64,000 nt of DNA from Acidimicrobiia bacterium. GTDB taxonomy: Bacteria > Actinomycetota > Acidimicrobiia > Spongiisociales > ZC4RG35. The translations under genes and the position numbers were made by a program. Positions 11,008 to 31,927 of this stretch are shown here, piece after piece; the first letter of the stretch is position 1, and each line of letters begins with the position of its first letter. The notes under the pieces were generated by a model. That model was not told the origin of the DNA. It saw nothing but the letters and a program-made list of their open reading frames with translations, and ran no database searches. The stretch spans positions 200,760 through 264,759 of the forward strand of contig JANQOU010000008.1 in assembly GCA_028285585.1 (NCBI GenBank), written 5' to 3'.

Positions 11008-12054
11008 CTAGCCCACAGACGGTGTGAGCAGGGAAACCAACATGTAGCCGACAACAGCGAGCGTGAGAGCGGCCGCAGCTCCCGTTGCGAGCGCTCGCCA
11101 CGAGGCCCGGGTCAGTTCCCCTATCACGAGACTCATTCCAACCCCGACTATCGCTACGAGGATGGCTAGATCCGCAAATCCTGTGAGCACGCCCGCGATC
11201 GGCTCTGAAATGACCCCGAAGGTGCGGAGAGCCATCATCCCAAAGAACGCCAGTAGGAAAGTCGGAATGGCGTTCCTGACGCTGGACCGCAGCCCGTCGC
11301 CTCGAGCGTGTTCGCCCCCCACCCGCCAAGCGACCGCGGGTATCACGAGCGCCATAGCGGCGTTCCGAATCAGTTTGACCACTGTTGCGACGTCGCGGGC
11401 CGACTCTGAAAACGCCGTCCCCGCCGCCACCACCTGGCTCGTGTCTTGGATTGCCAGACCGGCCCAGAGCCCGAAAGAGACATCGCCCATGCCCGATAGT
11501 CGACCAATGGGAGGAAGAATCAAGAGACTCACAGTGCCGCAGATCGTGACGGTGCTGACCGCAAGGGCGACATCCGACGAACGGGCCTTGATGACCGGCG
11601 CGGTGGCCATGATCGCCGTGTTGCCACAGATTGCGGAACCTACGCCGATCAAGGCTGCTAGCTGACGCCCACAGGACAAACGCTGGCCGACGATCCATGC
11701 CACTCCGAAGCCCAGTGTGATTGAAGTCGCCACGAGTACTATCGACTCCGATCCGAGTCGGGCGACATCGCCAAGGCTCAGCCGGGCGCCCAACAGCACG
11801 ATTCCGATTCTCAAGACATGACTCGTAAGGATTCGCAGCCCATCGCGCAGGTACCTGTGGGATAGGACATTCCCGACGATGACGCCGAGTATGAGGGCGA
11901 CGGGGATCGGGCTCACCCCGGCGGGCAGGGCTCCAGCGAGCAACGACGCCGACGCCGCCACGGCTGCTCCGGCCATGACTCCCGGGAGGTAGGACAGCAC
12001 CGTCGGGGTATCTGATCGGCTCGGTGTGTGACGAGCGGTCTCGGACTCGCTCAT
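11008..12054 (-). CDS. YeiH/UPF0324-family membrane protein (putative sulfate exporter family)
   Basis: ~10 TM helices with a YeiH-like core (…GVGSAICGNTAIMATAPVI…). Start at MSESE (12054). Confidence 0.7.
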   Translation of the reverse strand: MSESETARHTPSRSDTPTVLSYLPGVMAGAAVAASASLLAGALPAGVSPIPVALILGVIVGNVLSHRYLRDGLRILTSHVLRIGIVLLGARLSLGDVARLGSESIVLVATSITLGFGVAWIVGQRLSCGRQLAALIGVGSAICGNTAIMATAPVIKARSSDVALAVSTVTICGTVSLLILPPIGRLSGMGDVSFGLWAGLAIQDTSQVVAAGTAFSESARDVATVVKLIRNAAMALVIPAVAWRVGGEHARGDGLRSSVRNAIPTFLLAFFGMMALRTFGVISEPIAGVLTGFADLAILVAIVGVGMSLVIGELTRASWRALATGAAAALTLAVVGYMLVSLLTPSVG

Positions 12055-12172
12055 GTCTGTGAACGTGTCCCACGTGAGCTGGGTGGGCCAACCGCTCTGC
12101 GTCTCGCATGGATCAACGCTTCCTTCGGATGGGCACACACATCTGATTCCATTCGAGAGCTACTCGTCGGCA

Positions 12173-13348
12173 TCACCCCGAGTACTTGGAGGCTGCCCCG
12201 GTGTTGTACAGCACAACGGTGTCACCCGCCGAGAGCCATCCCGAAGCCAAGAGCTGTCGGTAGGCCGCAAGGCAAGCTCCGCCCTCCGGAGAGCCCCAAA
12301 CCCCGGTTTCTCTGGCCAGGGACAGAGAAGCGTCGATCATTTCCTTCTCCTCGACCGCAACAGCTGTCCCGTTGGTTGATCTCAACCCCTCGAGGATCAA
12401 ACGATCCCCCAAGGCCGACGGAACCCTCAGCCCGAACGCCAGGGACTCATCAGGATCAAGCCAGGTCTCAGCTCGATCAGCGCCATCGGTGACGGCCTTG
12501 ACGATCGGCGCACAGCCAGCCACCTGCACTGCGACCATCCGTGGGCGCAAGGAGTCGATCCACCCCAGCTCCTCCATCTCGTCGAAGGCTTTGACCATCC
12601 CGACGAGTCCGGTTCCGCCACCTGTCGGATAGATGACGACGTCGGGCAGCCGACCGAAATCCCAGAAGATCTCATAGCCCATCATCTTCTTGCCCTCCAC
12701 CCGGTACGGTTCGCCCAGAGTCGCAAGTGAAAACCAGGACGGATCCTTGGCCCGCTCTCGACTCAGCGCGCCCGCATCGGCGATGCTTCCCTGGACGAGA
12801 ATGACTTTGCCGCCCAAGGCTTCGATCTCATCGATCAACGGGAGTGGCGTGTTGGATGGAACCACCACCTCGACTGATACGCCGTAGATTGCGCCGTAGG
12901 CTGCTGCGGCTCCTCCGGCATTTCCGTTCGAGGGAAGACAGAAGTTTCGAGCGCCTAGTTCAAAGCTCCGGCCAACGGCCACCGCCATGCCCCGTGCTTT
13001 GAAAGAACCGGTCGGGTTCTGTGACTCGTCTTTGACCCAAACGTTCTCACCCACCCCACGACCGGGGAGCATCGGGGTGCCGCCCTCGCCCAGCGTCGGG
13101 CTCTGTGTTCCGGCGGCCAGAGGCAGCATCTCGTGGAAACGAAACTGCCCGCGATTGCGGGCGAGGACATCGGCGAGGGTCGCCGAGATGGACGAGATGT
13201 CGTAGCGCGCAAGGAGGGGCCCGCCACATTGCCCACACACATTCTGGAGAGTGTTGGCATCATGACGTTCGGAGCAGTGTCCACACTCGAGATGGGACAG
13301 CGCAGACGGGATCGTCTCGTCAGTCGTAGTGCTGGACATGTCGGGCAT
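12173..13348 (-). CDS. Threonine synthase-like PLP enzyme with an N-terminal zinc ribbon
   Basis: CGHC…CGQCGG zinc-ribbon and the PLP-lysine motif SFKARG. It has a tryptophan-synthase-beta-fold family body that ends …GDTVVLYNTG. Confidence 0.75.
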   Translation of the reverse strand: MPDMSSTTTDETIPSALSHLECGHCSERHDANTLQNVCGQCGGPLLARYDISSISATLADVLARNRGQFRFHEMLPLAAGTQSPTLGEGGTPMLPGRGVGENVWVKDESQNPTGSFKARGMAVAVGRSFELGARNFCLPSNGNAGGAAAAYGAIYGVSVEVVVPSNTPLPLIDEIEALGGKVILVQGSIADAGALSRERAKDPSWFSLATLGEPYRVEGKKMMGYEIFWDFGRLPDVVIYPTGGGTGLVGMVKAFDEMEELGWIDSLRPRMVAVQVAGCAPIVKAVTDGADRAETWLDPDESLAFGLRVPSALGDRLILEGLRSTNGTAVAVEEKEMIDASLSLARETGVWGSPEGGACLAAYRQLLASGWLSAGDTVVLYNTGAASKYSG

Positions 13349-13400
13349 CGAATTCTGGGGTGGGTGTCCCTCTCTCAACGGTTACCGCCTTACTTGGTTG

Positions 13401-14834
13401 CTAGTCGTCATCGTCTGCGACTGCGATCGTCGTCAGATCTCGGAAGGGTTCGATACCGAGCCGCCCTCCTTCGTAACCCCCGTAACCACTTGCCTTGAGC
13501 CCCCCGAACGGGAACTGAGGGGTGGTGGGGGAAGGAACGTTGACACCGATCAGCCCACATTCGATCTTCTGGCTCAGGCGGACTCCGCGTGCAGGATTCG
13601 AGGTCGCAAAGTACGCCGCCAATCCCATTTCATCTCCGATGCTGTCCTCGAACACCTCATCGATGTCGTCGAATCGGCGAAACGGTGCGACCGGGCCAAA
13701 GATCTCTTCGTTCCAGATTCGAGAATCGACCTGGGGATCCAGGACCGCCGTCGGCGCCATGTAGAAGTAGTTTGGGGTGTCGACATCAGTAGCCACGATG
13801 GTCGCTCCCCCGACCCGGGCCTCCTCGATCAAGGTCTGAAGACGATCGACCGAAGTCCTCTTCCGGAGCGGCCCAAGGTCGGTCTCAGGGTCGAGGGGAT
13901 CGCCCACACGCATCTTCGCAATGTGCTGACAGAACGCCGAGGTCACTTCGTCCCAAAGATTCGAGGCAACCCACACGTGGTTGGCGGCAATGCAGGACTG
14001 GCCATTGTTTCGGAACTTGGCGACGACCAGATCGGCAACGGCCGACTCCACTGAGGCGTCTTCGAGGATGATGAAGGGAGCATGCCCGCCGAGTTCGAGT
14101 GTCGTGTCCATCAGACGACTCCCCCCGGTCTGTGCCAGTTGGCGACCCACTGTGGTGGATCCAGTGAATGAGACTCCGTTGACCCGCTCATCGGCCAACC
14201 AGGTGTCAACAACGTCTCCCACGGGACCGACGACTGTGTTTACGACGCCGGGGGGTAGATGACGATCGAGAATCTCCGCCAACCTGAGACCCGCCAGAGC
14301 ACCGTCGAGGGAAGGCCGGAAAACGATCGAACAACCCGCCGCAAGGGCCGGAGCGATCTTCCGTGCTGGAATCGACACCGGGAAGTTCCACGGGGTCAGC
14401 ACCGCCACGACGCCCTTGGGGCGAGAAATCACCTTGTGCCTGACTCCGGGGCGCGCCCTCCACTCGAAGTCGGGATCGGTTCGCGTCACGGCAGCGAACC
14501 AGCGGAAGTAGCTGGCCGCGACCTCAATCTCCCCCCGGGCCTCGGCGAGCAACTTGCCTGATTCACGGGCGAGCAATCCGGAAAACCCTGAATCCGAGGC
14601 GCGGATCAGGTCGTCAGCAATGGCGAGGAGAGCATCGGCGCGTTCGGGTGCAACGGTTTTTGCCCAGTCCTTCCCCGCGTCTACAGCGACAGCCACTGCC
14701 GTCGTGGCTTCCGCTACACCGCCTCCGGCGATCGACGACAGGGTCTCCCCTGTTGCCGGCTCGGTCACGCCGATCGATGCGGGACCCGCGTCCGCTGCGC
14801 CGGAGATCCGGACGCCGGGTTCGATACTGCTCAT
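13401..14834 (-). CDS. NAD(P)-dependent aldehyde dehydrogenase
   Basis: ALDH motifs FTGSTTVG and ELGG plus the catalytic Cys context NNGQSCIAA. Start at MSSIEPG (14834), directly abutting the upstream dehydrogenase stop at 14839. Confidence 0.8.
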   Translation of the reverse strand: MSSIEPGVRISGAADAGPASIGVTEPATGETLSSIAGGGVAEATTAVAVAVDAGKDWAKTVAPERADALLAIADDLIRASDSGFSGLLARESGKLLAEARGEIEVAASYFRWFAAVTRTDPDFEWRARPGVRHKVISRPKGVVAVLTPWNFPVSIPARKIAPALAAGCSIVFRPSLDGALAGLRLAEILDRHLPPGVVNTVVGPVGDVVDTWLADERVNGVSFTGSTTVGRQLAQTGGSRLMDTTLELGGHAPFIILEDASVESAVADLVVAKFRNNGQSCIAANHVWVASNLWDEVTSAFCQHIAKMRVGDPLDPETDLGPLRKRTSVDRLQTLIEEARVGGATIVATDVDTPNYFYMAPTAVLDPQVDSRIWNEEIFGPVAPFRRFDDIDEVFEDSIGDEMGLAAYFATSNPARGVRLSQKIECGLIGVNVPSPTTPQFPFGGLKASGYGGYEGGRLGIEPFRDLTTIAVADDDD

Positions 14835-14838
14835 CGAT

Positions 14839-15840
14839 TCACTCGCTCGTCCCGCTGGCGGTGGGGGTTTCGCTGGCGCCGAGGATGGCTCTGACACCTT
14901 CTGCCACTTCGAAGGCGACACGCAACGACGACTCAATAGTGAGACCCGCGATGTGGGGTGTGAGAATGAGGTTCGGAACGTCTGCGAACGGTTCAGCGGC
15001 TTCGCAGGACAGCGGCTCGGTTTCGAACACGTCGAGGGCTGCTCCACCGAGTCGACCAGATCGCAGGGCAACGGCCACAGCATGTTGATCGACAATGCCT
15101 CCCCGGGAAGTGTTTACCAGCAACGAACCTGGCTTCATCAGTTGGATCGCTCGTTCGTCGATGAGGTTGTGAGTCTTTGATGTCAAGGGCACGTGGATGC
15201 TGATGGCGTCTGAAGACTCGAGTAGGTCGTCCCAGCCCGACGAGACAGCTTCTTGCCAGCGACTGTCGGCGGCGTCGATCTGCGGATCGTGGGCGGCAAC
15301 CGTCATCCCGAGAGCGGAGGCTCTCTTCGCCACTTCTCTGGCGGTGGCACCGAAGCCGACGAGCCCGAGTCGCTTGCCGGATGCTTCGAAACCGACACTT
15401 TCTCGTCTCGGCCATTCCCCATTGACAACTCGATCGGTGTGACCAAGAGCCGGTCTCCACAGAAGAAGCAGGGCCGCGACGACGTAGTCGGCAACGGACG
15501 TCGCATTCGCCCCAAACGCGGCGCGAACCTGGACATCGGCAGCCTCACAGGCCTCGACGTCGATGTTGTCCAAACCAGCACCTAACCGTCCGACCACCTG
15601 GAGACGCCGGGCCGCCGACAACAACTCGACATCGACCTTCGTCTGATTCCGGACCACCAGCCCCCTGGCCTGCGGCATCAACCGGAGCAACCGAGCGCGA
15701 TCGTTGTACAGAGTCGGGTCGTACACGACAGAGAAATCGTCTACCAGCCCACCAACAGCCTGCTCATCCATGTCTTCGCAGATGATGATCTCGGCCCGAG
15801 AAGGATCGGCTGGCTCGTCGGTGGAGTCTGAGTCGCTCAT
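14839..15840 (-). CDS. D-isomer-specific 2-hydroxyacid dehydrogenase (SerA/PGDH-like)
   Basis: Rossmann motif GLVGFGATAREVA, a catalytic …NTSRGGIVD… region and …TPHIAGLT…, which are hallmarks of the D-2-hydroxyacid dehydrogenase family. Confidence 0.8.
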   Translation of the reverse strand: MSDSDSTDEPADPSRAEIIICEDMDEQAVGGLVDDFSVVYDPTLYNDRARLLRLMPQARGLVVRNQTKVDVELLSAARRLQVVGRLGAGLDNIDVEACEAADVQVRAAFGANATSVADYVVAALLLLWRPALGHTDRVVNGEWPRRESVGFEASGKRLGLVGFGATAREVAKRASALGMTVAAHDPQIDAADSRWQEAVSSGWDDLLESSDAISIHVPLTSKTHNLIDERAIQLMKPGSLLVNTSRGGIVDQHAVAVALRSGRLGGAALDVFETEPLSCEAAEPFADVPNLILTPHIAGLTIESSLRVAFEVAEGVRAILGASETPTASGTSE

Positions 15841-15850
15841 CCGTCTTGCA

Positions 15851-15864
15851 TGTTACATGTAACA
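15851..15864. promoter_or_regulatory. Perfect 14-bp palindrome TGTTACATGTAACA (candidate GntR/FadR-type operator)
   Basis: Seen directly in the 70-bp gap between the MlrC-like stop (15911) and the 2-hydroxyacid dehydrogenase start (15840). GntR-family sites are of the form N-GT-N(x)-AC-N. Confidence 0.45.
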
Positions 15865-15910
15865 GGCCCTCCCGGCGAAAGAACAGGCGTGACTCGGTCT
15901 TGACCGCCTC

Positions 15911-17392
15911 CTAAGTGACGTCGGTGACGGGCTCGAACGGAAAGAGCGGTCTCCGGCGTCTCCGGTACGGAAGATTCTCCATGTCGGCCCGGGTCGAACC
16001 GGGTGTGGCGACCTTAAGGATCGTTGGGCAGTAGGGTGCGTAAGCGGGTATGGGCGCATTCGTCCCTTTGGCCACGATCACATCGAAGTCGGTGGGATCG
16101 AGCCCGCAACTCGTCAGCTGGCCGATGCTGAAAGGCATGACCCGGAGTGAGGTCAGCTGCACGGTGAGACCGTCACACGCGACGATGGCGGTGTGCCCCA
16201 TGTCGAATTCCTGGAGACCGGCATGACGGACAGCCTCCTCAAAGAACTTCCCCTCGTGCAGACTCAGCACGGTCGCGGAGGTCGTGATCGGTGACCCGTG
16301 CAGGTCGTCGGTCTTTGCCCCAACCTCCAGTTTCACCGACTTGCCCACCCCGGCGCTGGCGGCTGCCGCCACGCTCGTGGGGTCGTAGATGGCCACAAAC
16401 CCGCTCTCGATCGGTGATTCCAGGATCCTCTTCGCCAGGATGGTGCCGTCGCCGGCCGAGCCGCCTCCGATGTTGTCCCCGGTGTCGAGCAGGCAAACAC
16501 GCTCCGTCGCCGACGACGCCCGAGATACCGCTTCATCGACACCTACCAGACGTGCCACAAATCGCTCACGCTCGCTCATCAGGGTTGACCCGACACGACG
16601 CGCATGTTCGGTAGCTTCCTGTGGGGAGGCATCTGTGACAACCACCACCGACGCTCCGTTCTCAACCACATCGGCGAACCGGTATCCGAGACAGAAGCTG
16701 GCGCTGAGCACGTCTGGCTCAGAACGCACCTCGTCCATCAACATCCCGATAGACGCACAGGGCTCGACGCGTGTGTCCTGGAGCAAAACGTTGATGGCCA
16801 GTGGGGGAAACACCGCAGCTTGAGTCAGGGCTACTTCCCCCGCGACAGCCCTCAGCATGAGGTGCGCTGCCTCCATGCCCCGGTCGAATGTGTCCAGGTG
16901 GGGATTGGTCCGATACGCCACCAAAGCGTCGGTTGCATCCACCATGTCATTGGACACGTTGGCGTGGGCATCGAGCGTAGCGATGATTGGTATCTGCCCG
17001 ACGGCCGCCCTGATCTGTCGTAACCACCAGCCATCGGCGTCCGGGTGCTCTTCACAGACGGCAGCACCGTGAGCTGCCATCAGCAGCCCGTCGAGCGTGG
17101 GGACGGCACCAATCGCCGTGAGGGCCCGGTCGAGAAGGGCTTCGCAGGCAGCAGATGTGATCTCCCCGCTTGGGGTGGCCGAAGCCGAGAAAAGAGGCAC
17201 CGCTTCTACCGGATTGTCATCCAGACCGGCGAAAAACCCGCCTAGATCGGAGTGCTGACCCGTCCAGCGATCGCGCACACCAGGGCCAGCGTGCATCTCG
17301 AACATCTCAAGGTTCGTACGGGTTGGCACAAAGCTGTTCGATTCGTGCCAGAGACCCAAGACGCCGATCCGGGGGGTTCGGTTGCCGGTCAC
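15911..17392 (-). CDS. MlrC/M81-family metallopeptidase-like protein (DUF1485+DUF1611 architecture)
   Basis: N terminus PRIGVLGLWHESNSF, the hallmark start of the MlrC family. GTG start at 17392 forms a GTGA overlap with the upstream gene's stop. Confidence 0.75.
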   Translation of the reverse strand: MTGNRTPRIGVLGLWHESNSFVPTRTNLEMFEMHAGPGVRDRWTGQHSDLGGFFAGLDDNPVEAVPLFSASATPSGEITSAACEALLDRALTAIGAVPTLDGLLMAAHGAAVCEEHPDADGWWLRQIRAAVGQIPIIATLDAHANVSNDMVDATDALVAYRTNPHLDTFDRGMEAAHLMLRAVAGEVALTQAAVFPPLAINVLLQDTRVEPCASIGMLMDEVRSEPDVLSASFCLGYRFADVVENGASVVVVTDASPQEATEHARRVGSTLMSERERFVARLVGVDEAVSRASSATERVCLLDTGDNIGGGSAGDGTILAKRILESPIESGFVAIYDPTSVAAAASAGVGKSVKLEVGAKTDDLHGSPITTSATVLSLHEGKFFEEAVRHAGLQEFDMGHTAIVACDGLTVQLTSLRVMPFSIGQLTSCGLDPTDFDVIVAKGTNAPIPAYAPYCPTILKVATPGSTRADMENLPYRRRRRPLFPFEPVTDVT

Positions 17393-19287
17393 TTCGAGTC
17401 CGCGAACTCTCTCCCGTAGAAAGCGAAGTACTGCTCCACGGGTTCGTCCTTTCTGGCGCTGCCCCGTGCCATATCTGACGGGTTGGCCCGCCTGGAGTCG
17501 AGCCACGGCGAGTACAGGACTGCACCGAGTCTGGCCGCATGCAGGGCGGTTCGATCGTATTGGAGCCGCTCCGCAGCGTCGGGCCGCGTAGATTGGGAGG
17601 AGATCCCCATCTCCATGTCGGCTACCGCGAACTCGAGGTTGGCGGCAAGGGCCGAGACCATGAGCGCTTCGGCATCATCGGCAGGGTCAACAGATTTCAC
17701 ATCGGCCAGGCAATCTCGATACACCCGGGCGGTATTCTCAGTCACCGACGCATCCTCATATGACCCGAGGAAACCCTTGAAGAAGGTTCCACCGGCGTCT
17801 TCAAACCGCTCGAGAATGGTTGCCATCGTCGACGCCGATCCGGAGAAGCGCGCACTCAGATAGGACTCGATGAACTCCCGATAATCGAGGCTGACGTCCC
17901 AGGACAGCGCCGAGATGAGCTGATGGACGAGCTCATAGGTCAGCCAATCCCCCGGAACCACATACGTTCCGGACCCGAAGGCAGCGACACCGAGAGACCT
18001 ATAGAACGGTATCTCCTTCGACATGAGGTGTGGCAGGAGTACAGGCAACGAGTGCCACGCCATCTTCCGGTAGTACTCATACCAACCGACCTTGCCGGCA
18101 AAGCCGGCGTCTCTCCAGCGTGATAGCAGTGACGGCCACTCTGCATTCCTTGGCTGGTCCGGAGAGAAGATGGGCGCCCCATAGTCCCGATCGAGGGGTG
18201 CGAAGTCGACGATGACATCCTCGTGGTATCCATACTCGGGGTCGGGCGGATCGAGGGCCGGTGTGTATGAGAGAGTGGCGACCGTCACCGGCAGACGGTT
18301 GTTCCTCAGTTCCGCGCACAGCCGGTTGGTTACGTGAGCCTGAGCGTTGCTCATCGTTCCGAACCGGTCGACGGTCGACTCGGCCCACCGGGCGAAGTCG
18401 GGTGGCCACGCCTCGAAGATCGAGACCTCGGGTCGGTCGGCGAGATAATCGACCACGGCGTCGACATATGTCTGAACCGCCTCGGGGTGCTCCGCTTTGA
18501 ACACGGTTGGCGGAGGTTCGCCGGTGGCAGTGGGCTCATCGACTCCGCCGAACCAATCGGGATGGGCAGGTTCGAGATCGGAAGGCTTCAGGAACGACTG
18601 GTACCCGTGCCCGCCGGTTTCGACGGCAATGGCGCGCCTGGCCAACTCGGGTAGGACATGTTCCCGATAGTCGTCCCATCGCACGAGACCCCTCCCTTCG
18701 TCGTCGTAAGGGAAGACCAACGTGTTGCGTCTCTGCTTGGCCATCCAGTCGATAATGGCGACGAGAGCATCGGAGTCGATGCTCCACCCTTCGCCCGCGT
18801 CGGCGCGCCGAATGTCGAAGGACGGCGACTCGGTGACGCTGAGGCCCACATCGAGCGTGTTCGCAGCCGGGATCTTCTCGTGGTGCCCCCGGTAGGTCGG
18901 AAAGCGCGGGGCAAAGAACCGGACTCCCACCTGCTCCAGCAGCCGGTAGGTCGAATACAACACTCCCCGCTCGGACCGCGAGGCCAAAACACCCACCGGG
19001 CTATTCAGATTGATTGAGTAACCATCGGGGTGACGACCACAAAGCTCGACGCTCGCCGACTGGATACCGGCGACCACTTGTTCCGACGACGTCCCTCGAG
19101 GTGCAAGCGCCAACGCAGCAACCGAACCGGGGCCCGACTGATGTTCAGCTATGCCCAACCGCGCCCCCGTGATCAGATAGACGTACTTCTGCAGTTCTTC
19201 GGCGGCGAAGCCCACCGGATCAGCAGGGCTCTGACCCCCTATGGGTGTGATCACAAGTGAGGTTCTGCCTTGGTCGACAAGAAGCAT
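17389..19287 (-). CDS. Large hypothetical protein (632 aa), possibly a glycoside-hydrolase-like/DUF4838-type TIM-barrel
   Basis: Long ORF with coding-like composition that is translationally coupled on both sides. The function call is only a weak resemblance and is low confidence. Confidence 0.6.
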   Translation of the reverse strand: MLLVDQGRTSLVITPIGGQSPADPVGFAAEELQKYVYLITGARLGIAEHQSGPGSVAALALAPRGTSSEQVVAGIQSASVELCGRHPDGYSINLNSPVGVLASRSERGVLYSTYRLLEQVGVRFFAPRFPTYRGHHEKIPAANTLDVGLSVTESPSFDIRRADAGEGWSIDSDALVAIIDWMAKQRRNTLVFPYDDEGRGLVRWDDYREHVLPELARRAIAVETGGHGYQSFLKPSDLEPAHPDWFGGVDEPTATGEPPPTVFKAEHPEAVQTYVDAVVDYLADRPEVSIFEAWPPDFARWAESTVDRFGTMSNAQAHVTNRLCAELRNNRLPVTVATLSYTPALDPPDPEYGYHEDVIVDFAPLDRDYGAPIFSPDQPRNAEWPSLLSRWRDAGFAGKVGWYEYYRKMAWHSLPVLLPHLMSKEIPFYRSLGVAAFGSGTYVVPGDWLTYELVHQLISALSWDVSLDYREFIESYLSARFSGSASTMATILERFEDAGGTFFKGFLGSYEDASVTENTARVYRDCLADVKSVDPADDAEALMVSALAANLEFAVADMEMGISSQSTRPDAAERLQYDRTALHAARLGAVLYSPWLDSRRANPSDMARGSARKDEPVEQYFAFYGREFADSK

Positions 19288-20063
19288 CAGCTCGTCCCGG
19301 CATGGACGAGGAAGCCCGTCCCAGGCTCGACACCAGTGATGTTGTTAGGAATCCAATCGACAGCAGAGGCATCCAGGTAAGACTCAACCCAAAGGTCCCA
19401 ATGGATGGGCACAACTGTGTCGGCGTTCATGAGCCCCACGGCGTCCTCGAACTCCCCCTGGTTCAGATAGACCTTGTTCCCGAGAAGCGTCTCGCCGAAA
19501 TTCAGGAAGGCCAAGGTCACGTCGAGATCACCAACCTGTGAGAACACGTCGGGGTCGAACCCGGTGTCACCGAAGTGGGCCACCCTGGCCGTCTGAGACT
19601 CGACAACGTATGAGACAGCTTCGATGGCGAAGTCGTCGGCGCTGCGCAACACATTCACCACGAACGCTCCGACCTCAAGCCGATCTCCAGCACGCACCGG
19701 GCATACGTCGTCGATGCCTCCGGCTCTCAAAGCCTTGGCAGCTTCCCCGGGTGCGAACACCGCGGTCGAAGAACCGTTGCTCAAAGCGCGAACCGCTTCG
19801 GGGTCGCAGTGATCGCGATGCTCGTGGGTGATCAAAAAAACGTGGGCCTGGTGGGCGTCATCGGGTCCAATCGCCGACACTGCTCGCCGGGTGATCTTCG
19901 GATTGGCTGCCTGACCAAAGAAGGGGTCGATCCACAGATATTGATTGAGACTGCGAACGACGACCATCGAGCCTCCGGCCCAGAACATAAAGTCCCCCGA
20001 GATCGGGTTGCCGGGATCCAGCATCGGAGGGCCTGACTCCCTGGGAACCACCTCGATCGTCAC
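19287..20063 (-). CDS. MBL-fold metallo-hydrolase (UlaG-like)
   Basis: HxHxDH motif as LITHEHRDHCD. Translationally coupled to its neighbours. Confidence 0.8.
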   Translation of the reverse strand: MTIEVVPRESGPPMLDPGNPISGDFMFWAGGSMVVVRSLNQYLWIDPFFGQAANPKITRRAVSAIGPDDAHQAHVFLITHEHRDHCDPEAVRALSNGSSTAVFAPGEAAKALRAGGIDDVCPVRAGDRLEVGAFVVNVLRSADDFAIEAVSYVVESQTARVAHFGDTGFDPDVFSQVGDLDVTLAFLNFGETLLGNKVYLNQGEFEDAVGLMNADTVVPIHWDLWVESYLDASAVDWIPNNITGVEPGTGFLVHAGTS

Positions 20064-20956
20064 AGTATCGAATTCCTTTCCAGCACAATCTCGAGCTCGC
20101 GACGCTCCTCATCCGACAGAGGGGTCATCGGGTGACGGGGATCTCCTCCGACTAGCCCGGCAAGGTCCATGGCCGCCTTCGTGTATGGGATGAATGCCAG
20201 CTCGCCACGGCTCGATCGGGGTTGGAGCAGTCGTCGGTATGCCATGAGGCGTCGGTTGAGGTCGCGAGCTGTCTCGAGGTCTCCGGCCTCGACCGCGTCA
20301 CTGAGTTGCTTGATGAACCCGGGAGCAAACGCGGCAGTCGCCGGCATACATCCAGCAGGACCCGCCGCCAGGGCGAAGTACAGGGGGTCCTCAGCCCCGG
20401 CGATCACGGCCAACTCGGAGCCAAGGATGTCGACGATGTAAGAGAATCGAACCATGTCCTGACCCGCGTACTTGTACCCGATGACGTACTCGAACTCGGG
20501 TACGCGGCCGATGGCCAGAATATCGATCGCGTCGGCGATCGATGGGTTCTCATAGACAATGAACGGAGTGTGATCGGCGTTGAGCATCCTCAGCTCGTTG
20601 AGGACCTCATCGACTGATCCTGCCGAGGGTTTGACCATCAGCGCGTCCGCCATCCCGTCTCGGACCAGTTTGCACGAAGCACGCCAGGTTTCGGGGCGGG
20701 ATTCGGTCCCGAGCACAACAACGCCGGAATCGCCCACCGTGCCGCGTATCACCTCGAGCGACTGGACGAGCTCGTCCCAGGACAAGGAGAAAGGCTCCGC
20801 CATCGTCCCTCCGACCACGAAAGCGGACACCTGGCTGTCGGCCAGCGCAACCGCGTTCGCTTCCACGCCGTCGAAATCGATCGTCTGATGAGTGTCGCGG
20901 TGAAACGGAGTGGTCAACGCCGCCATCACCCCGCACAGCGCCGATCGGTCTATCAC
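20060..20956 (-). CDS. DapA/N-acetylneuraminate-lyase-family class I aldolase
   Basis: ~298 aa TIM-barrel aldolase family with an N-terminal GVMAALTTPF… and DHDPS-like spacing. ATGA overlaps at both ends. Confidence 0.65.
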   Translation of the reverse strand: MIDRSALCGVMAALTTPFHRDTHQTIDFDGVEANAVALADSQVSAFVVGGTMAEPFSLSWDELVQSLEVIRGTVGDSGVVVLGTESRPETWRASCKLVRDGMADALMVKPSAGSVDEVLNELRMLNADHTPFIVYENPSIADAIDILAIGRVPEFEYVIGYKYAGQDMVRFSYIVDILGSELAVIAGAEDPLYFALAAGPAGCMPATAAFAPGFIKQLSDAVEAGDLETARDLNRRLMAYRRLLQPRSSRGELAFIPYTKAAMDLAGLVGGDPRHPMTPLSDEERRELEIVLERNSIL

Positions 20957-22086
20957 AGGTCAGGCCGTTGGGGTGTGGGACCAGTGTGCGCGGCGGGGTT
21001 TTGCAGGTGGTAGGCAAGCCGATCGAGAATGATGTCGGCTTCCCCCACGTCCACCGGACTCGGGTTCACCAGAACCAGGTCGCCTTCGCTGGCGACGGCA
21101 ATCCGCTCAAAGTGCCATAGCCGGTTCGCCAGTTCTTCCGACGAGAGCGGGATGCGATCAAAGTCGATCCTTACCGCGGCCCGCGGACACGGCTGACCGG
21201 CCACATTGGGGAAGTCCCGGAAGGCCTCGACCCCCGGAATGGCATCCCACGAGTCGACCCACATCTCGACCATCTTCTCGCGCTGGGCGATCGTTTCATC
21301 CTCGTCCTCGAGGAGGTAGTCCTCAATCGCCGCGACCAAGCCAGCCATCACCTCCGGACTCACCTTGAGAGCACGGGCGAGCGTTTGATGTGGTGGACCG
21401 ATGGCGCGGCAAGCCTCAACCAGATCACGGCGGCCCACGAGGAATCCGCTGTTCTGGGGGCCTCTCACCTCCTTGCCGCCACTAAACGCTGCTGCGTCTG
21501 CCCCGAGTTCGGTTGTGTACCTCCACAGATTTGACGCCGGAGGTAGCTGGGCGGCGGCATCAACGAGAACGGGTATTCCCCTCGGTTTGCACACGGTGAC
21601 AACTTCATCGAGGGTCAGACTTGAGGCCGAGTCATCACGAACCGGGACAAAGAGGTAAGCACGCGCGCCACGTTCGATCGCTTCGACGAGCTGACCGACA
21701 CTGGTTCCGTTGTCATCACCGATCTCAACCAGACTCGCTCCCACCAGTCGAACCACAGCATCGTACGGGGTGCGCTGGGAGCGCTGAATCAACACCCGGA
21801 ATCCGCCTCTGTCCATCGGAAGCTGAGCCGTGGCCGCAGCATCTCCATCCGACATGAGAGCGAGGAATGCGATGGCGAGAGCCGCCGCTGCCCCGTTCGC
21901 GATGTAGGCACCGTCGTTTCGGGTGAGAGCTGCGATGTGGTCACCGAGTTCGGCCTGCATCGCGAACACGTCGTGGTACTCCGTGCCCGCGGGAGCCATG
22001 GCGTCGAGGGTTCGTTTCCTCATCCTCGAACCGCCAAGGAACGTCGACCAGGAATGGGCGTTGATGACCGGTTGGCCTTGGGGCAC
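20953..22086 (-). CDS. DgaE/SelA-like PLP-dependent enzyme (D-glucosaminate-6-phosphate ammonia-lyase family)
   Basis: N terminus …VINAHSWSTFLGGSRM… matches the …IINAAGTLTRLGGS… start of the DgaE/SelA-like family. Has a PLP-fold body. Confidence 0.65.
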   Translation of the reverse strand: MPQGQPVINAHSWSTFLGGSRMRKRTLDAMAPAGTEYHDVFAMQAELGDHIAALTRNDGAYIANGAAAALAIAFLALMSDGDAAATAQLPMDRGGFRVLIQRSQRTPYDAVVRLVGASLVEIGDDNGTSVGQLVEAIERGARAYLFVPVRDDSASSLTLDEVVTVCKPRGIPVLVDAAAQLPPASNLWRYTTELGADAAAFSGGKEVRGPQNSGFLVGRRDLVEACRAIGPPHQTLARALKVSPEVMAGLVAAIEDYLLEDEDETIAQREKMVEMWVDSWDAIPGVEAFRDFPNVAGQPCPRAAVRIDFDRIPLSSEELANRLWHFERIAVASEGDLVLVNPSPVDVGEADIILDRLAYHLQNPAAHTGPTPQRPDL

Positions 22087-22118
22087 CGATCCCTTGGTGA
22101 CTGAAGCTTCTTGGGTGC

Positions 22119-22595
22119 TCAGCTCTGATTCCTGACTTCGGCTATGACCTCGAGTTCAACAGGGATGTTGAAAGGGAGGCTGGCCATCCCCAGGGCGGCA
22201 CGCGTGTGCTGTCCGCGCTCCCCGAGAACCTCGAGCAGCAGTGACGATGCTCCGTCGATGACGGCCGGTTGCTTGGTGAATTCGGGACCGGCGTTCACCC
22301 AGCCCGTGAGTCTGACGATGCGCTCGATCGCATCCAGGCTCCCCAACAGATCCCTGAGAGCACCAAGGCAATTGAGTGCGGAGATCCAGGCAGCGTCCTG
22401 ACCCTGTTCGATCGTCAGCTCGGACCCCACCTTGCCTATGAAGATATGCCTGCCGTCCCAGTACGGCCCGAAACCAGAGGTGACCGCAAGACTCCCGGTA
22501 AGCACTGCCGTGGTGAAGAGGCTCTCCCGCTCGTCGGGCGGGGGCAGATCCACCCCCAGCCGGTGTCTGCGGTCTGCCGTATCGACGCTGCTCAC
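22119..22595 (-). CDS. RidA/YjgF/TdcF-family reactive-intermediate deaminase
   Basis: RidA-like core (…GKVGSELT…MASLPFNIPVELEVIAEV). Proposed GTG start at 22595, with a GGGAGG ribosome-binding site 4 nt upstream and a GTGA overlap with the upstream stop. Confidence 0.7.
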   Translation of the reverse strand: MSSVDTADRRHRLGVDLPPPDERESLFTTAVLTGSLAVTSGFGPYWDGRHIFIGKVGSELTIEQGQDAAWISALNCLGALRDLLGSLDAIERIVRLTGWVNAGPEFTKQPAVIDGASSLLLEVLGERGQHTRAALGMASLPFNIPVELEVIAEVRNQS

Positions 22596-23602
22596 GACGC
22601 CTCCCTCAGCCAATCCCGCCACTCACGTCCCGGTGATCTATCGGCCAGCGGAACGTCGAGGTGTCGTTCCGCGCGGTTGTATTCGCCGACTGACGCAACG
22701 ACCCTCGCTACATCCTCGTCGTCGATGCCGAGTTGATGGGGTCGCCACAGCACTCCGGCTCCGTCGAGAACCGTTAGAGGCCTCGCAACCGACCTTCCCC
22801 TGAGGAGGTGGGCAACGACGATCCCCAGCGCAACGGCCTCCCCGTGGACAAATTTGCGGCCCGTCACCCTCTCGAGATTCCATGCGAAAAGGTGCTCATA
22901 TCCTGCGCCGAGCGGCCCGCCGGACGACTCCATCAGGCGGACGCTCTCGTACAGGAGACGGAGTGTTTCGAGGCATTGAGCCTCGTCGGATGGGTCGTAG
23001 GCTCTCGCCAGACCCGCCAGGGCATCCACCAAGTCCTCGACGAGGGACGAATGGGTAGAGATCTCTCGGTCGTCTTCTTCACCTGCCTGGGTGTCGATCC
23101 AGTCGAGCAAGGCGGTCTCGACCGCCAAGACGTCGGCGAGACCGGCAGCGTTGATCCGACGCGGAGCGGTGGTGAGGACCGCCAGATCGAGGATCACCAG
23201 CCTGGGGTCGGCCCGATGCACCTCACCAGCCCGGCCGCTCTCGTCACGCTCACGCATCGAGGATGTGAAGATCGAGTTCGTCGAGGTCACTGTTGGAACT
23301 AGGACGAGATCGAACCCCGTCTCCGAGGCGACGAGTTTCGCCCAGTCGAGAGCCGCACCGCCCCCAAAACCAACGACGGTCGCTTCTGGATCTGAGTCGC
23401 TGGTGCGGCCGGCCGGCCTCTCCCCCGCGTTGAGGTTGATGCTCGATGGTATTCGAGACAGCTGATCGGCAAGGGCAGTTCGAGCACCAGATTCGCTGAC
23501 GATGATCAGTCGCCGCTCTCGTCTAAGAGCATCGACAAGGATGTCATGACCGACATCGAGCCAGCCCGACATCGCATCGACCCACGGTGGAAGGGGGTTC
23601 AT
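22592..23602 (-). CDS. Iron-containing alcohol dehydrogenase / dehydroquinate-synthase-like enzyme (G1PDH/AraM-like)
   Basis: NAD-binding glycine motif VVGFGGGAALDWAKLVA and a DHQS-like fold length. Confidence 0.65.
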   Translation of the reverse strand: MNPLPPWVDAMSGWLDVGHDILVDALRRERRLIIVSESGARTALADQLSRIPSSINLNAGERPAGRTSDSDPEATVVGFGGGAALDWAKLVASETGFDLVLVPTVTSTNSIFTSSMRERDESGRAGEVHRADPRLVILDLAVLTTAPRRINAAGLADVLAVETALLDWIDTQAGEEDDREISTHSSLVEDLVDALAGLARAYDPSDEAQCLETLRLLYESVRLMESSGGPLGAGYEHLFAWNLERVTGRKFVHGEAVALGIVVAHLLRGRSVARPLTVLDGAGVLWRPHQLGIDDEDVARVVASVGEYNRAERHLDVPLADRSPGREWRDWLREAS

Positions 23603-24789
23603 GTTTCACCTCTCGAAGCAGCGACCGCCGCCTGAACGAGCCTGTCGGCGGATCCGCGATGGACCGGCGAATCGAACCCGAAGTAGATGTGTGACTCCTC
23701 GACTTCATACCCACCCTCGTCATACGCGTGTTCGGGTGCCACATAGCCGAGGTAGCCGTCGGTGAGTGTCGCCGGCATCACGTCCCCAATCTCTCCCTCG
23801 ATCCGCTGGCCGACTTCGCTGAACAGTTCGGCGGGAGTGAGTAGAAGCCTCCATGGTCCAACACCAACGAACGACACGCGCGCGACACCAAGATCCGCAC
23901 CGCTGGTGGACTCGATCGGAGTCACGCTTTGCCCTGTGGCCAATCTGGCATGTGGGGCAGTCGAGATCTCGAGCGCGGCGCGCACAGCGACTCGACCTAC
24001 CTTCTCACCCGCACCACGGACCCTGTCGGGGTCGAAGGTCCAGTCGAATCGTCCCGATTCAGTGACGTGGCAAGAGCGGACGTCGCCACAATAGCCAAGA
24101 AGGAACACGGCGACGCTTCCCGGGAACTCCTCCTCGATCAGGTCCCTGACCACGCCGACGTAGTCAGGGCCGATCAGCGTTGATTCTCCGGCCGTCGTGG
24201 GGTGGCATCCGTAGGAGACCACCACTCCTCTTGGTGACCCATCCTCGGTGTCGAAGCGGGCGACCTTGACTCGACGGTCGACCGGACCATCGAAGTTGGC
24301 GTGTGGTGGCTTCGCGACAAGGCCGTCGGGACCGGGAAGCCTGCGGTTCACTCCCAGGTCGCACGAGCCTTCTCCGACGCCAAGGTGAACAGGAAGCTGG
24401 GCAGCCAAGGCACCAACAGCAGCCTCGGACGCGGACGCGAGCAGCGTGTCGATGTACGCGGGCTCACCGGTGGAACCGTCGGCGGTGATGAATGGAGGCA
24501 CCTGCGGCGCGGTGTGGGTGTGAGTCGATGCGACGTGGATCCGATTCGTTGCGACGCCAGATGCCTCGGACACCCCACCCTGGATTCGCGAGACGGTCGC
24601 AGACGATAGGCCGAGTAGGTCGAACACGATGACCACTACCTGGTCGGTGCCGTCGGATATCGCAATCGCGCGACAGTCGATATCCGCCTCCACACCGGTG
24701 GAAATCCTCTGCGTTGGCCAGCCACCGAGAGGCAATCCGGGAGCGGATGGGGTGATGCTCACCCGGCTGAATCCGGCGGTGACAGTCAT
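23599..24789 (-). CDS. Neutral/alkaline ceramidase-like hydrolase (N-terminal catalytic domain family)
   Basis: Motif HVASTHTHTAPQ resembles the …SATHTHSGPGG… zinc-site motif of neutral ceramidases. N terminus …RVSITPSAPG…. Confidence 0.55.
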   Translation of the reverse strand: MTVTAGFSRVSITPSAPGLPLGGWPTQRISTGVEADIDCRAIAISDGTDQVVVIVFDLLGLSSATVSRIQGGVSEASGVATNRIHVASTHTHTAPQVPPFITADGSTGEPAYIDTLLASASEAAVGALAAQLPVHLGVGEGSCDLGVNRRLPGPDGLVAKPPHANFDGPVDRRVKVARFDTEDGSPRGVVVSYGCHPTTAGESTLIGPDYVGVVRDLIEEEFPGSVAVFLLGYCGDVRSCHVTESGRFDWTFDPDRVRGAGEKVGRVAVRAALEISTAPHARLATGQSVTPIESTSGADLGVARVSFVGVGPWRLLLTPAELFSEVGQRIEGEIGDVMPATLTDGYLGYVAPEHAYDEGGYEVEESHIYFGFDSPVHRGSADRLVQAAVAASRGET

Positions 24790-25462
24790 GCCGACACCTC
24801 AACGCTTACATCGATAGCCGCCTGATAGGACCGAAGTTTGCGCAGTTCCAATTCGCCGGTAGATGCTGCGTCGGCCACGCCAAGCAGTGGCGCACCGATA
24901 GCGAAGGTGCCAAAACCTTCAGCCGCAAGCCCCCGCACGTAATTGGGTTCGATGCCACCGCTCAGAATCAACGGAGGGCTCCCAAACGGGCGGGTCATCG
25001 TGTCGAGATGGTCGGCTCCGAAGATTCCCGCGGGAAAGACCTTCAACATGTCTGCTCCAGCCGTCAGCGCAGTGTCGATCTCGGTCGGAGTCAATACTCC
25101 CGGCACGGCGACGAGGCCCTCGGCGCGCAGTCGTTGGATGACATCCGGGTTGGCTCCGGGAGCAACACCGAACGTCGCTCCCGACCGGGATGCCTCAGAG
25201 GCCTCCTCCACGGTGCGAACGGTGCCCAAACCAACGGGGAACTCGGCGCCGAACTCGTCGGCGAGCTCACGGACAGCGGCGAAGGCACCTTCGGATTCGG
25301 CGGTGACTTCCAGGGCCAGGATGTGCCGTTCGGATACCAGGACTTCGGCAGCGCGCAAGATAGCCCTCCGCTCCAACCCGCGGAACACCACGACGATGCC
25401 CGGACGGTTCAGAGTTTCGATGACGGGTGTCGGGTCAGGATGCTGGTGTTCGACTGTCACCC
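24786..25462 (-). CDS. eda: KDPG/KHG aldolase (Eda family)
   Basis: Eda-family TIM barrel (…LKVFPAG…LILSGGI…). GTG start at 25462 in a GTGA overlap with the upstream permease stop. Confidence 0.7.
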
Positions 25463-26311
25463 CTTCAAACCTCCCTCCAGAAGCCCTCTGCTGAACCACC
25501 TTTGGAAGATGATGTAGATGGCGAACGCCGGAATGAACATCACCAGGGCTGCCGCGGCGGCGACCGGAAACGAGAAGTCGGGGTCAGACGCACTAACAGT
25601 GAATGCTTTGATGCCCAGCGCCATCGGCTGAACGTCGATGCCGGCGAAAGTGAAGGCAAAAATGAACTCACCCCAAGCCGGTATGAACGTGAACAGGGCT
25701 ACGACGACCGCTCCACCTCGGGCGAGAGGGAACATCACCCAGCGGAAGATCTGCCAGCGGTTGGCCCCATCGACAACCGCAGCTTCGATCATTTCACCCG
25801 GTATGCCATCGAAGATCGTCCTCATGATGAAAGCGCCCAGGGACACGAACCAAGCCACATACACCAACACGAGTCCTTGGTAGGTGTCGAGCCAACCCAG
25901 GAGCAGCAGCTCCTGGTAGAGAGCGGCGATCGCGAGAACGGGGGGCAAGAACAGAGTCAGTGTGAGCAAGCCAAACAAGATCTTGTGGCCCGGAAAGTCG
26001 CTTCGCGACAGCGCGTACCCGGACAGCGCTGCCACGACGACAACTCCGATCACCGTCAGCCCTGTGACGATCACACTGTCGAGGTAGTAGCTCGCCATCT
26101 CAGGGACCCGCTGAGTCATCTCTCTGAAGTTGTCCAGCGTGAGGCTCGTCGGGAAAGGCTGGAACTGCTGTGTCTCAGGTCGAAAGGCGATCGATGCGAA
26201 CCAGACGAACGGAAACAAAACAGCAAAACAGCCCAGCACGAGTGCCAGGGTTCGAGTGCGGAGAGCTCCGGACCTCTTCCAGCGATGACCGGTGGTTGCC
26301 ATCCTGCTCAT
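25457..26311 (-). CDS. Carbohydrate ABC transporter permease (MalG/UgpE-like)
   Basis: 6 TM helices and an EAA loop region (…AAVVDGANRWQIFRWVMFPLARG…). ATGA overlap with the upstream permease. Confidence 0.8.
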   Translation of the reverse strand: MSRMATTGHRWKRSGALRTRTLALVLGCFAVLFPFVWFASIAFRPETQQFQPFPTSLTLDNFREMTQRVPEMASYYLDSVIVTGLTVIGVVVVAALSGYALSRSDFPGHKILFGLLTLTLFLPPVLAIAALYQELLLLGWLDTYQGLVLVYVAWFVSLGAFIMRTIFDGIPGEMIEAAVVDGANRWQIFRWVMFPLARGGAVVVALFTFIPAWGEFIFAFTFAGIDVQPMALGIKAFTVSASDPDFSFPVAAAAALVMFIPAFAIYIIFQRWFSRGLLEGGLKG

Positions 26312-27276
26312 TCGACCTCGGTCCTTACAATCTTCCAGATGAGCCATGCGAGAACGAGAGTGATGAGGCCGAGCATCAGGTACCAGGCGCTAGCCCGGCC
26401 GACTCTGTCCTGGTAGAAGAAGATCTCGAACGCCTCCAACCCATATGTTGTGGTGGCGTCAATTGGCCCGCCGCCCGTCATGAAGAGTGGCTCCGCAGTC
26501 AGCGCGAAGACTTTGAGTCTCAGGATTAGAACAATGGCGAGAACCGGCCGAAGAAGCGGCATCTGGACTGACCAGAAGGTCCTCCAACCGGAGGCACCGT
26601 CGACCCTTGCGGCATCCAGCAGACTTCTGGGGATCGCCGCAAGTCCGACCAGGAACAGGATCAGGACCTCCCCGAACAGCCTCCACGTGGTCATCGCAGC
26701 CATCGAGGGCAAGGCGAGATTGGGGTCGCCAAGGAAGTTGATCGGACCGATGAAGGGAATGGCTCCGAGGACCGACCGACTCAAGCCTACTTGGGGGTCG
26801 AGCATCCACACCCACATTTGAAAGACGATCGCCGCGGGAAGAACCACTGGGAGGTAGTAGATGATGCGGTAGACAGTGGCAGACCGTCGCTCACCGATCC
26901 TGTCGAGGGCTACCGCGATGGACAACGCGATGATGATGCTGATCGGCACGTACATCAGGAAGAACAGTGCCGACCGCGAAAGTGAGCTCCACATACGGTC
27001 GTCCTGGAACCAATGGACGTAGTTGTCGAAGCCGACGAACTCGTTGCGCTGTTGGACCACTGAGACTCTGAAGAACGAGTTGTAGATCGTCCTTACGATC
27101 GGATAGAAGACAAACGCGCCCATCACGAGCAGAAGGGGCACGGTGAAGGGGAAGCTGGTCCCCTTTCCCATTTGAGATGGACGACTGCTGGACTCGCGGA
27201 GACCTGACTGCCGCTTGTTGATGGTGTCGGTCATCTCACTCTCAGAAGGATGCGGAGTAGTGCGGCCCGTCAACAC
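26308..27276 (-). CDS. Carbohydrate ABC transporter permease (MalF/UgpA-like); start 27234 or 27276
   Basis: TM topology and an EAA motif (…DAARVDGASGWRTFWSVQMPLLRP…). Confidence 0.8.
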   Translation of the reverse strand: MLTGRTTPHPSESEMTDTINKRQSGLRESSSRPSQMGKGTSFPFTVPLLLVMGAFVFYPIVRTIYNSFFRVSVVQQRNEFVGFDNYVHWFQDDRMWSSLSRSALFFLMYVPISIIIALSIAVALDRIGERRSATVYRIIYYLPVVLPAAIVFQMWVWMLDPQVGLSRSVLGAIPFIGPINFLGDPNLALPSMAAMTTWRLFGEVLILFLVGLAAIPRSLLDAARVDGASGWRTFWSVQMPLLRPVLAIVLILRLKVFALTAEPLFMTGGGPIDATTTYGLEAFEIFFYQDRVGRASAWYLMLGLITLVLAWLIWKIVRTEVE

Positions 27277-27313
27277 ACAGGCCGCACCACTCTGGAGGAG
27301 GAATGGCTATCTG

Positions 27314-28693: not shown

Positions 28694-28741
28694 AGATCAC
28701 TCCAGTTGTTCGCCGTATGCCGGAGTCGGAGGTTGCCGACT

Positions 28742-28756
28742 GTGCATGTAACATAC
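28742..28756. promoter_or_regulatory. Near-copy of the 15.85-kb palindrome (GTGCATGTAACATAC) in the divergent regulator/operon promoter region
   Basis: Shares the CATGTAACA core and a TGTGCA half-site with TGTTACATGTAACA. Lies between the binding-protein-gene start (28693) and the GntR start (28936). Confidence 0.4.
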
Positions 28757-28935
28757 TTTAGGCCCACTCAGGAGTCAAGGGGGCAAAACCGCCTATTTGT
28801 GATGGGATTTCTGAACAGTCTCTTCGATCGGATTCCTTCGAGATGTGACGCCCTGTCGAATAGGGTATGCAACATGAGAATGGATCGAGGACGCTCGTGA
28901 CCTCTGCCGGGCCCGACGGTCAACCGCGGCAGATC

Positions 28936-29580
28936 ATGTCTGTCAGCCTCAAGGACCAGGTACTTGCCGGTCTGCGTGCAGGCCTCCTCAAGGGAGACTT
29001 CAAGCCAGGAAAGATCTACAAGATGGGGGAAGTCGGAGAGCAGTTTGGCGCATCCAGGACGCCCGTGAGGGAAGCTGTCCTGGAGCTCGAGTCACGAGGC
29101 GTCGTCGAGATAATCCGTAGCGTGGGGTTCCGTGTGACGGAGCCCACCCCAGACGACATCCAGGACATGTGGGAGGTCCGGGCGATCGTGGAAGTACCGG
29201 CAATGGAATCGCTGTCCGGCCGACTAGACGACTCGACGTTGGCCAAACTGTGGTCGCTGATCGACGACGTCGAGAAAGCAGCACGCTCCGATGACCTGGC
29301 AAGCTATCTCGCCAAAGACGCCCAGCTACATGACGCGCTCTACGAGGAGCTCTCCAACCGCCATCTCGCTGCGACCATTAGAGACCTTCGCGATTCGCAG
29401 CGGGTACCGAGCCTGGGAGCGCGACGAGCGTCCAGCGATTTGATCGCTCGCAATGAGGAGCACCGTGCATTGGTTGCGGCCATCGCATCCGGGGACACCG
29501 AGAAGATCCACAATCTGACTAGAGCCCACCTATTGGTGAACTACCACAAGTGGCAGAGTCAGAGCGATCACCGGGACTAG
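28936..29580 (+). CDS. GntR-family transcriptional regulator (FadR/FCD subfamily)
   Basis: N-terminal winged HTH (…LAGLRAGLLKGDFKPGKIYKMGEVGEQFGASRTPVREAV…) and a C-terminal all-helical FCD-like domain. The ATG at 28936 is preferred over the TTG at 28867. Confidence 0.8.
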   Translation: MSVSLKDQVLAGLRAGLLKGDFKPGKIYKMGEVGEQFGASRTPVREAVLELESRGVVEIIRSVGFRVTEPTPDDIQDMWEVRAIVEVPAMESLSGRLDDSTLAKLWSLIDDVEKAARSDDLASYLAKDAQLHDALYEELSNRHLAATIRDLRDSQRVPSLGARRASSDLIARNEEHRALVAAIASGDTEKIHNLTRAHLLVNYHKWQSQSDHRD

Positions 29581-31853: not shown

Positions 31854-31927
31854 TGGAGCTGACGGGATTTGAACCCGTGACCCCCTCGTTGCGAACGAGG
31901 TGCTCTGCCAGGCTGAGCTACAGCCCC
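31854..31927 (-). tRNA. tRNA-Ala (anticodon CGC)
   Basis: Folded by hand. Acceptor stem GGGGCTG/CAGCTCC with the G3:U70 Ala identity pair and discriminator A. D-stem GCTC/GAGC. Anticodon stem CCTCG/CGAGG with loop TTCGCAA. T-arm ACGGG-TTCAAAT-CCCGT. No encoded CCA. Confidence 0.9.

Follow-up and report, generated by a model that had tools for sequence, protein, structure and literature searches.

The question raised by this locus is whether two related sequence elements lying 12.9 kb apart are operators of one and the same regulator. The first (site 1) is a perfect 14-bp palindrome, TGTTACATGTAACA, at positions 15851 to 15864 of the window (the whole stretch of DNA that was analyzed, 64,000 nucleotides in length, with a G+C content of 62%). 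It lies in a 70-bp gap (15841 to 15910) between two genes of the minus strand, one for an M81/MlrC-type peptidase (15911 to 17506) and the other for a D-2-hydroxyacid dehydrogenase (14839 to 15840, with its ATG at 15840). The second (site 2) is the sequence TGTGCATGTAACATAC at 28741 to 28756, between the gene for an SBP_bac_1 binding protein (27314 to 28693, minus strand) and the divergent gene for an FCD-type GntR regulator (28897 to 29580, plus strand). The preliminary description of this DNA had read the two sites as one regulon under the control of the GntR protein.

The layout of the locus agreed with that description. The palindrome falls inside the 15846 to 15866 interval to which it had been assigned, the 70-bp gap separates the MlrC-like gene from the dehydrogenase/ALDH/ThrC-like genes, and the open reading frames (ORFs) and the GntR and FCD domains place a FadR-type regulator divergent to the binding protein that heads a 12-gene operon. 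According to its ORFs and Pfam/NCBIfam matches, this operon occupies 15911 to 28693 on the minus strand and encodes, in order, the SBP_bac_1 binding protein, two permeases, a KDPG-type aldolase, a ceramidase-like protein, Fe-ADH_2, a RidA-like protein, a DgaE/SelA-like PLP enzyme, a DHDPS-type aldolase, an MBL-fold protein, a DUF4838 protein, and, as the last gene product, the M81/MlrC-type peptidase. The DgaE-like protein belongs to the D-glucosaminate-6-phosphate ammonia-lyase family of PLP enzymes, and Fe-ADH_2 is glycerol-1-phosphate-dehydrogenase-like. No ABC ATPase gene was found in the operon. The 12 minus-strand ORFs from the binding protein to MlrC either overlap or are spaced by no more than about 37 bp, which makes the 70-bp gap the largest of the locus. 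Downstream of site 1, the dehydrogenase gene is the first of a distal module (11008 to 15840, minus strand) that also encodes an aldehyde dehydrogenase, a ThrC-family PLP enzyme, and a membrane protein that is a putative exporter of the YeiH family. The 12-gene operon probably encodes a pathway, not described so far, whose substrate is an amino-sugar acid or a glyco-peptide.

Homologs of the distal dehydrogenase carry the JGI label "(S)-sulfolactate dehydrogenase," and the last gene of the module encodes a protein of the YeiH "putative sulfate exporter" family. Organosulfonate chemistry, at which these labels hint for the 11008 to 15840 module, was considered and dropped, as the NCBIfam scores were below the cutoff (for all module proteins save the ThrC-family one) and the contexts of the homologs differed. 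The best dehydrogenase homolog found anywhere was only 60% identical, and the homologs sit in unrelated contexts.

A single close relative of the cluster, and the only syntenic relative of the 12-gene operon, was found across the protein collection, in ENA sample ERZ25072999, with a DgaE-like protein that is 68% identical and a regulator that is 76% identical to those of the window. Its two loci keep the window gene order. One (L005) has the regulator, binding protein, permeases, aldolase, and ceramidase-like gene in the same arrangement as the window, and the other (L001) holds the remaining operon, which stops at MlrC, ahead of a convergent gene. Neither the dehydrogenase module nor the motif described below was present in L001. 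The end of the relative's operon at MlrC suggests that the distal module was added on as a unit of its own. Three further loci (L002 to L004) with 51% identical DgaE-like homologs were tried as informative loci and set aside, their gene content being different and the motif being absent.

A perfect 14-bp palindrome is not rare in this window, which contains nine of them compared to 5.9 ± 2.4 in sequences simulated with a first-order Markov model. Site 2 had been called a near-copy of the palindrome. A related sequence is present at 28741 to 28756, but the whole palindrome is not, since the two sites have only one half and the CATG center in common (ATGTWACATGYA). When the window was searched with TGTTACATGTAACA at up to three mismatches, site 2 was not recovered, and the idea of a near-copy was therefore dropped in favor of a shared 12-mer. 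On the minus strand, this 12-mer reads ATGT[T/A]ACATG[C/T]A at both sites, with GGGCCT four bases upstream, and the best gap-to-gap alignment (minus strand) was GGGCCT-N4-[C/T]ATGT[A/T]ACATGCA. Among 300 shuffles, 43 reached an 11/13 match and one reached a 17/23 match; the resemblance of site 1 to site 2 is, by itself, borderline. Because 14-bp palindromes are common here and the similarity between the sites is borderline, the case rests on comparative data.

For the comparison, loci were taken that contain regulator homologs of 41 to 50% identity with near-identical DNA-binding helices. The consensus in these loci was a 16-bp perfect palindrome, ATGCTACATGTAGCAT, found in one to three promoter regions per locus and exclusively in intergenic DNA, with the central CATG and the G3/C14 pair being invariant. 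The motif was counted in six lineages, namely, the window, L005, L006, L008/L009, L010, L091, and L092. An operator centered on GT…AC, as anticipated in the preliminary description, was not what emerged; the motif is a 16-bp dyad, ATGYTRCATGYARCAT, with CATG at its center. An 11-bp palindrome, CATGTWACATG, was also tried as the dyad and was rejected, as it fits the window and L005 whereas the sites in other genomes center on CATG.

The 12-mer ATGYWRCATGYA, derived from the window, L005, and L006, was counted three to four times each in L008 (positions 1510, 7090, and 16402) and L010 (positions 1313, 7077, and 15776), where shuffling gave an expectation of 0.00. In L006 it was counted twice, as overlapping matches that represent one site (position 362). 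All three loci adjoin regulators of 43 to 50% identity, and every occurrence was in promoter-type intergenic DNA. A metagenome search with an alignment of the regulator gave no homolog above 35% identity, and these matches served as a negative control: 690 kb around 80 GntR homologs of 27 to 35% identity was searched for ATGYWRCATGYA, with 0 matches.

A symmetrized matrix was then built from seven sites in L006, L008, and L010 only, none of them from the window, and L091 and L092, fetched once the matrix was fixed, were used as held-out loci. In L091, which is from Nocardioides endophyticus (GCA_039543845.1), the top matches scored 26.6, 23.6, and 17.4 bits and were all intergenic; the site at 10735 of this locus is in a 74-bp gap between codirectional genes. 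The top match in L092 scored 25.3 bits and was likewise intergenic. All 11 of the strong foreign sites were intergenic, although intergenic DNA makes up just 7.1% of those loci. A prior-free count of strand-collapsed 8-mers in the intergenic DNA of L006, L008, L010, L091, and L092 gave GCTACATG, TGCTACAT, and ATGCTACA as the most widely shared, each being present in 5/5 loci and in seven to nine regions. The count thus recovered the same motif with no input from the window, by which circularity was controlled. Motif-like 16-mers, ATGGTACATGTAGCGC and ATGATACATGTAGCGC, with scores of 17.4 bits, were seen at L051 4973, L053 3157, and L062 4808, about 3 kb from GntR homologs that are only about 28 to 29% identical; these may be related operators or chance matches.

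The clade loci otherwise differ from one another, with SBP_bac_3 or SBP_bac_5 transporters, amidohydrolases, GFO_IDH, and M24/creatinase-like enzymes, together with PALP enzymes, RidA, and sometimes MlrC. The sole regulatory gene common to these differing loci is the regulator gene.

This regulator was assigned to the FadR subfamily (FCD) of GntR proteins on the basis of its domain content, PF00392 (1.6e-12) and PF07729 (6.5e-20), each above its cutoff. Its wHTH region is nearly invariant across the clade (YKMGE..FGASRTPVREA..LELE..G..E..R.VGFRV). It was the only GntR homolog found in a search of the window, with no second paralog, and a search of the genome contigs returned a single match, from Pirellula, at 25% identity. 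The best NCBIfam match was the PhnR-type phosphonate-utilization regulator (TIGR03338), which the window protein resembles in being an FCD-type GntR regulator beside a transport and catabolic cluster. However, the window locus has no phosphonate genes, and the score of 94 bits is far under the 271.5-bit cutoff, indicating that the regulator is not a member of the PhnR type. Literature and database searches found no characterized member of this regulator clade, and a full-text search with the core sequence and GntR returned nothing relevant.

The start of the regulator gene has two possible positions. The database copy of the protein (P0121, 227 amino acids) has a GTG start at 28897, 10 codons after the first ATG of the ORF, which could begin at 28867. 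A possible weak third site, TATGCAACATGA (28866 to 28877, plus strand), is situated at this first ATG, 20 to 30 nt before the annotated GTG start, and its matrix score was only 4.6 bits. The sequence TATGCA[A/G]CATG at the first ATG is kept in L005 (6087 to 6101), where it forms the inverted repeat TATGCA-N3-TGCATA. The 28866 to 28877 element may serve as an operator for weak autoregulation or, should translation truly begin at the ATG, may simply reflect a conserved MQH N terminus.

When the window was scored with the matrix from the other genomes, site 1 was the top match, with a score of 20.65 bits, a p value of 6e-8 per position, and an expectation of 0.004 matches per 64 kb. The predicted 16-bp operator, ATGTTACATGTAACAG, spans 15850 to 15865, located 10 to 25 nt upstream of the dehydrogenase ATG, and contains the 14-bp palindrome. 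It matches the consensus at 13/16 positions and is self-complementary at 14/16. It departs from the consensus by C>T and G>A at symmetric positions, which preserves the dyad. A weaker match, GTCTTGCATGTTACAT (15843 to 15858; 11.59 bits, about 0.53 expected per 64 kb), overlaps site 1 with an offset of 7 bp and brings the CATG-type boxes to three, the added one being gene proximal; on the minus strand, the boxes are CCTG-TTA-CATG-TAA-CATG with 7-bp spacing. Judged by its match to the foreign sites, the palindrome of site 1 very probably serves the neighboring GntR-type regulator as a genuine and strong binding site.

At site 2, the predicted operator is degenerate (ATGTTACATGCACAGT; 28739 to 28754, minus strand), consisting of one consensus half-site and the CATG center, and the 12-mer at its core agrees with ATGYWRCATGYA at every position. 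Its score of 11.84 bits was the third highest in the window, with 0.48 such matches expected per window, and site 2 alone is statistically weak. A match with a comparable score at 50403 to 50418 (11.95 bits, about 0.45 expected per 64 kb) is within a coding ORF and was taken as chance. In the 203-bp intergenic region of site 2 itself, the expectation is about 0.0015. The site is part of a 20-nt island, TGTGCATGTAACATACTTTA, that is identical in L005, while the flanking intergenic DNA has diverged. A promoter for the binding-protein operon was predicted at 28750 to 28778 on the minus strand (TTGACT, a 17-nt spacer, and TATGTT), this being the sole promoter-like site in 28550 to 29000, where 0.1 was expected in shuffles. 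The site 2 operator overlaps the -10 of this promoter and covers roughly -11 to +5. Site 2 is credible because it is in the regulator's own intergenic region, is conserved in L005, and overlaps the predicted -10. On these predictions, the strong, consensus-like operator is site 1, and the regulator's own divergent promoter holds a degenerate one.

We put the probability at about three in four that the adjacent FCD-type GntR regulator uses both sites as operators, by which it would locally repress two transcription units. Phylogenetic footprinting and the cross-genome co-occurrence of motif and regulator support the earlier suggestion of one regulon. A dimer of the regulator presumably binds the 16-bp dyad with its invariant CATG center. 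Bound to site 2, over the -10/start region, it would block RNA polymerase and thereby occlude the promoter of the 12-gene operon, for which the placement of the operator is classic. Site 1, a near-perfect consensus-like copy, would put the distal dehydrogenase/ALDH/ThrC-like/YeiH module under the same regulator, most likely through occlusion of a weak internal promoter (with TAACAT as the -10) that would give a leaderless or near-leaderless transcript. The regulator at site 1 may also stop read-through from the upstream operon. A pathway metabolite bound to the FCD domain should free the regulator and induce both units, by analogy with characterized FadR-subfamily regulators. In this scheme, we infer that the regulator physically binds the sites, that it represses rather than activates, and that an internal promoter and an effector exist; the model for repression and effector release is provided by the characterized members of the FadR subfamily (PMC4494728 and general knowledge).

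How the distal genes are transcribed bears on the role of site 1. Site 1 might be a genuine operator without an internal promoter, in which case the distal genes would be expressed by read-through and the regulator would serve there as a roadblock or as an auxiliary high-affinity anchor. In keeping with this, a consensus scan of 15600 to 16100 found no sigma-70-type promoter (-35 and -10 with 16- to 18-nt spacing) and no terminator, the only candidate element being the -10-like hexamer TAACAT (TANNNT), and the gap is just 70 bp with all genes being codirectional. High-GC Gram-positive promoters, however, often have no recognizable -35, and a promoter may thus exist at site 1 despite the empty scan. 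The TAACAT hexamer, read from the sequence at 15850 to 15855 (minus strand), is 9 nt upstream of the dehydrogenase ATG, which has no Shine-Dalgarno sequence before it, as in a leaderless start. Also against read-through, the relative's operon stops at MlrC, and the other strong sites are all intergenic and upstream of gene starts, including the one in the 74-bp codirectional gap of L091. TAACAT also abuts the operators at L008 7090 and L010 7077, and one L008 operator directly adjoins a start codon. A separately promoted distal unit is favored because of the position of TAACAT, the absent Shine-Dalgarno sequence, and the end of the relative's operon at MlrC, and TAACAT is a plausible candidate for the internal promoter of a leaderless or near-leaderless dehydrogenase transcript. 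As the consensus scan finds no promoter at site 1, transcription by read-through keeps a real, if clearly smaller, share of the probability and is best described as unlikely.

It is highly improbable that the palindrome and its partial copy arose by chance or are bound by another, unlinked transcription factor, the neighboring GntR protein being irrelevant. The commonness of 14-bp palindromes in the window (9 versus about 6 expected), the frequency with which shuffles reproduced the 11/13 gap match (43/300), and a motif that departs from the GT-N2-3-AC spacing canonical for FadR-subfamily members would each be compatible with such an origin. Against it, site 1 reached p = 6e-8 per position with a matrix from other genomes, the motif was found de novo beside the regulator clade in five further loci and was absent near distant GntR genes, and these loci share no other regulator gene. 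That the palindrome acts in RNA, as a hairpin at the MlrC-dehydrogenase junction affecting processing, stability, or translation initiation, is scarcely credible, because although a short A/U-rich hairpin is possible about 10 nt before the start codon, the 110-nt junction folds with a z score of +0.98 (174 of 200 shuffles being at least as stable), no Rfam family matches in the gap, and elsewhere the motif is in divergent promoter regions on either strand, which fits a DNA site.

The preferred assignment of both sites to the adjacent regulator can be set beside known systems. The window regulator has the N-terminal GntR wHTH and C-terminal FCD domains of FadR, DgoR, LldR, and PdhR. Like FadR-subfamily operators, the window motif is an A/T-richer palindrome in GC-rich DNA at a divergent catabolic/transport promoter, over a predicted -10, and there are several sites per locus, with an extra box 7 bp away. 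Extra half-sites 7 to 12 nt from GntR palindromes have been described (PMC4494728). The consensus for the subfamily consists of TKGT/ACMA boxes in which GT and AC are 2 to 3 nt apart, and some other members have atypical motifs (PMC4494728). This canonical TKGT/ACMA box layout was not found in the window motif, which differs in having a central CATG with TGY...RCA flanks 8 nt apart. Alternative readings of the motif are three CATG boxes spaced by 7 bp and GT-T-AC with 1-nt spacing. As in other local regulons with multiple operators, three promoter regions with an operator are present within about 10 kb of the regulator gene in each of L008, L010, and L091. Site 1 of the window differs in being in a short codirectional gap rather than in a divergent region, as does the similar site at L091 10735.

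More tentatively, and with the odds somewhat against it, we suggest that these proteins form a clade within the FCD-type GntR regulators that has yet to be described and occurs mostly in Actinomycetota-like genomes, that its members use a noncanonical 16-bp dyad of CATG boxes at 7-bp spacing and govern variable catabolic islands in which MlrC/M81, RidA, PLP-enzyme, and amidohydrolase genes abound, and that the window regulon captured its distal module through a perfect operator at a leaderless internal promoter. If true, this capture would illustrate concretely how a regulon can grow by acquiring an operator. In other respects the system appears ordinary, with standard local repressor logic and a somewhat atypical motif. 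The dyad ATGYTRCATGYARCAT provides a testable operator model for this uncharacterized clade, which has a member in a named species, N. endophyticus, where three sites are predicted in the vicinity of the regulator gene (L091 9886 to 9901, 10735 to 10750, and 19660 to 19675). Regulons may be delimited with the motif, by which the poorly understood M81/MlrC, DUF4838, DgaE-like, ceramidase-like, and RidA genes could be grouped into functional units. The motif would also link the distal dehydrogenase/ALDH/ThrC-like/exporter module functionally to the 12-gene operon, which would help in guessing the pathway.

Other elements were observed in the window. A tRNA gene (31854 to 31927, minus strand) was the sole Rfam match. 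Two tandem 35-bp units at 45199 to 45268 (CGTTGCTATAGCAAGG.GTCGCG...GCGACACG) are 86% identical to each other, and in each of them a GC-rich hairpin comes after a 12-bp palindrome, TTGCTATAGCAA. Both units are located in the divergent region between a binding-protein gene (44026 to 45165, minus strand) and a class-III aminotransferase gene (45310 to 46548, plus strand), and the repeat resembles an operator of some other regulator that has undergone duplication. A single 16-bp palindrome in the window is perfect, namely, TACGACATATGTCGTA at 30798 to 30813, inside an S41 peptidase-like ORF (30390 to 31583, minus strand).
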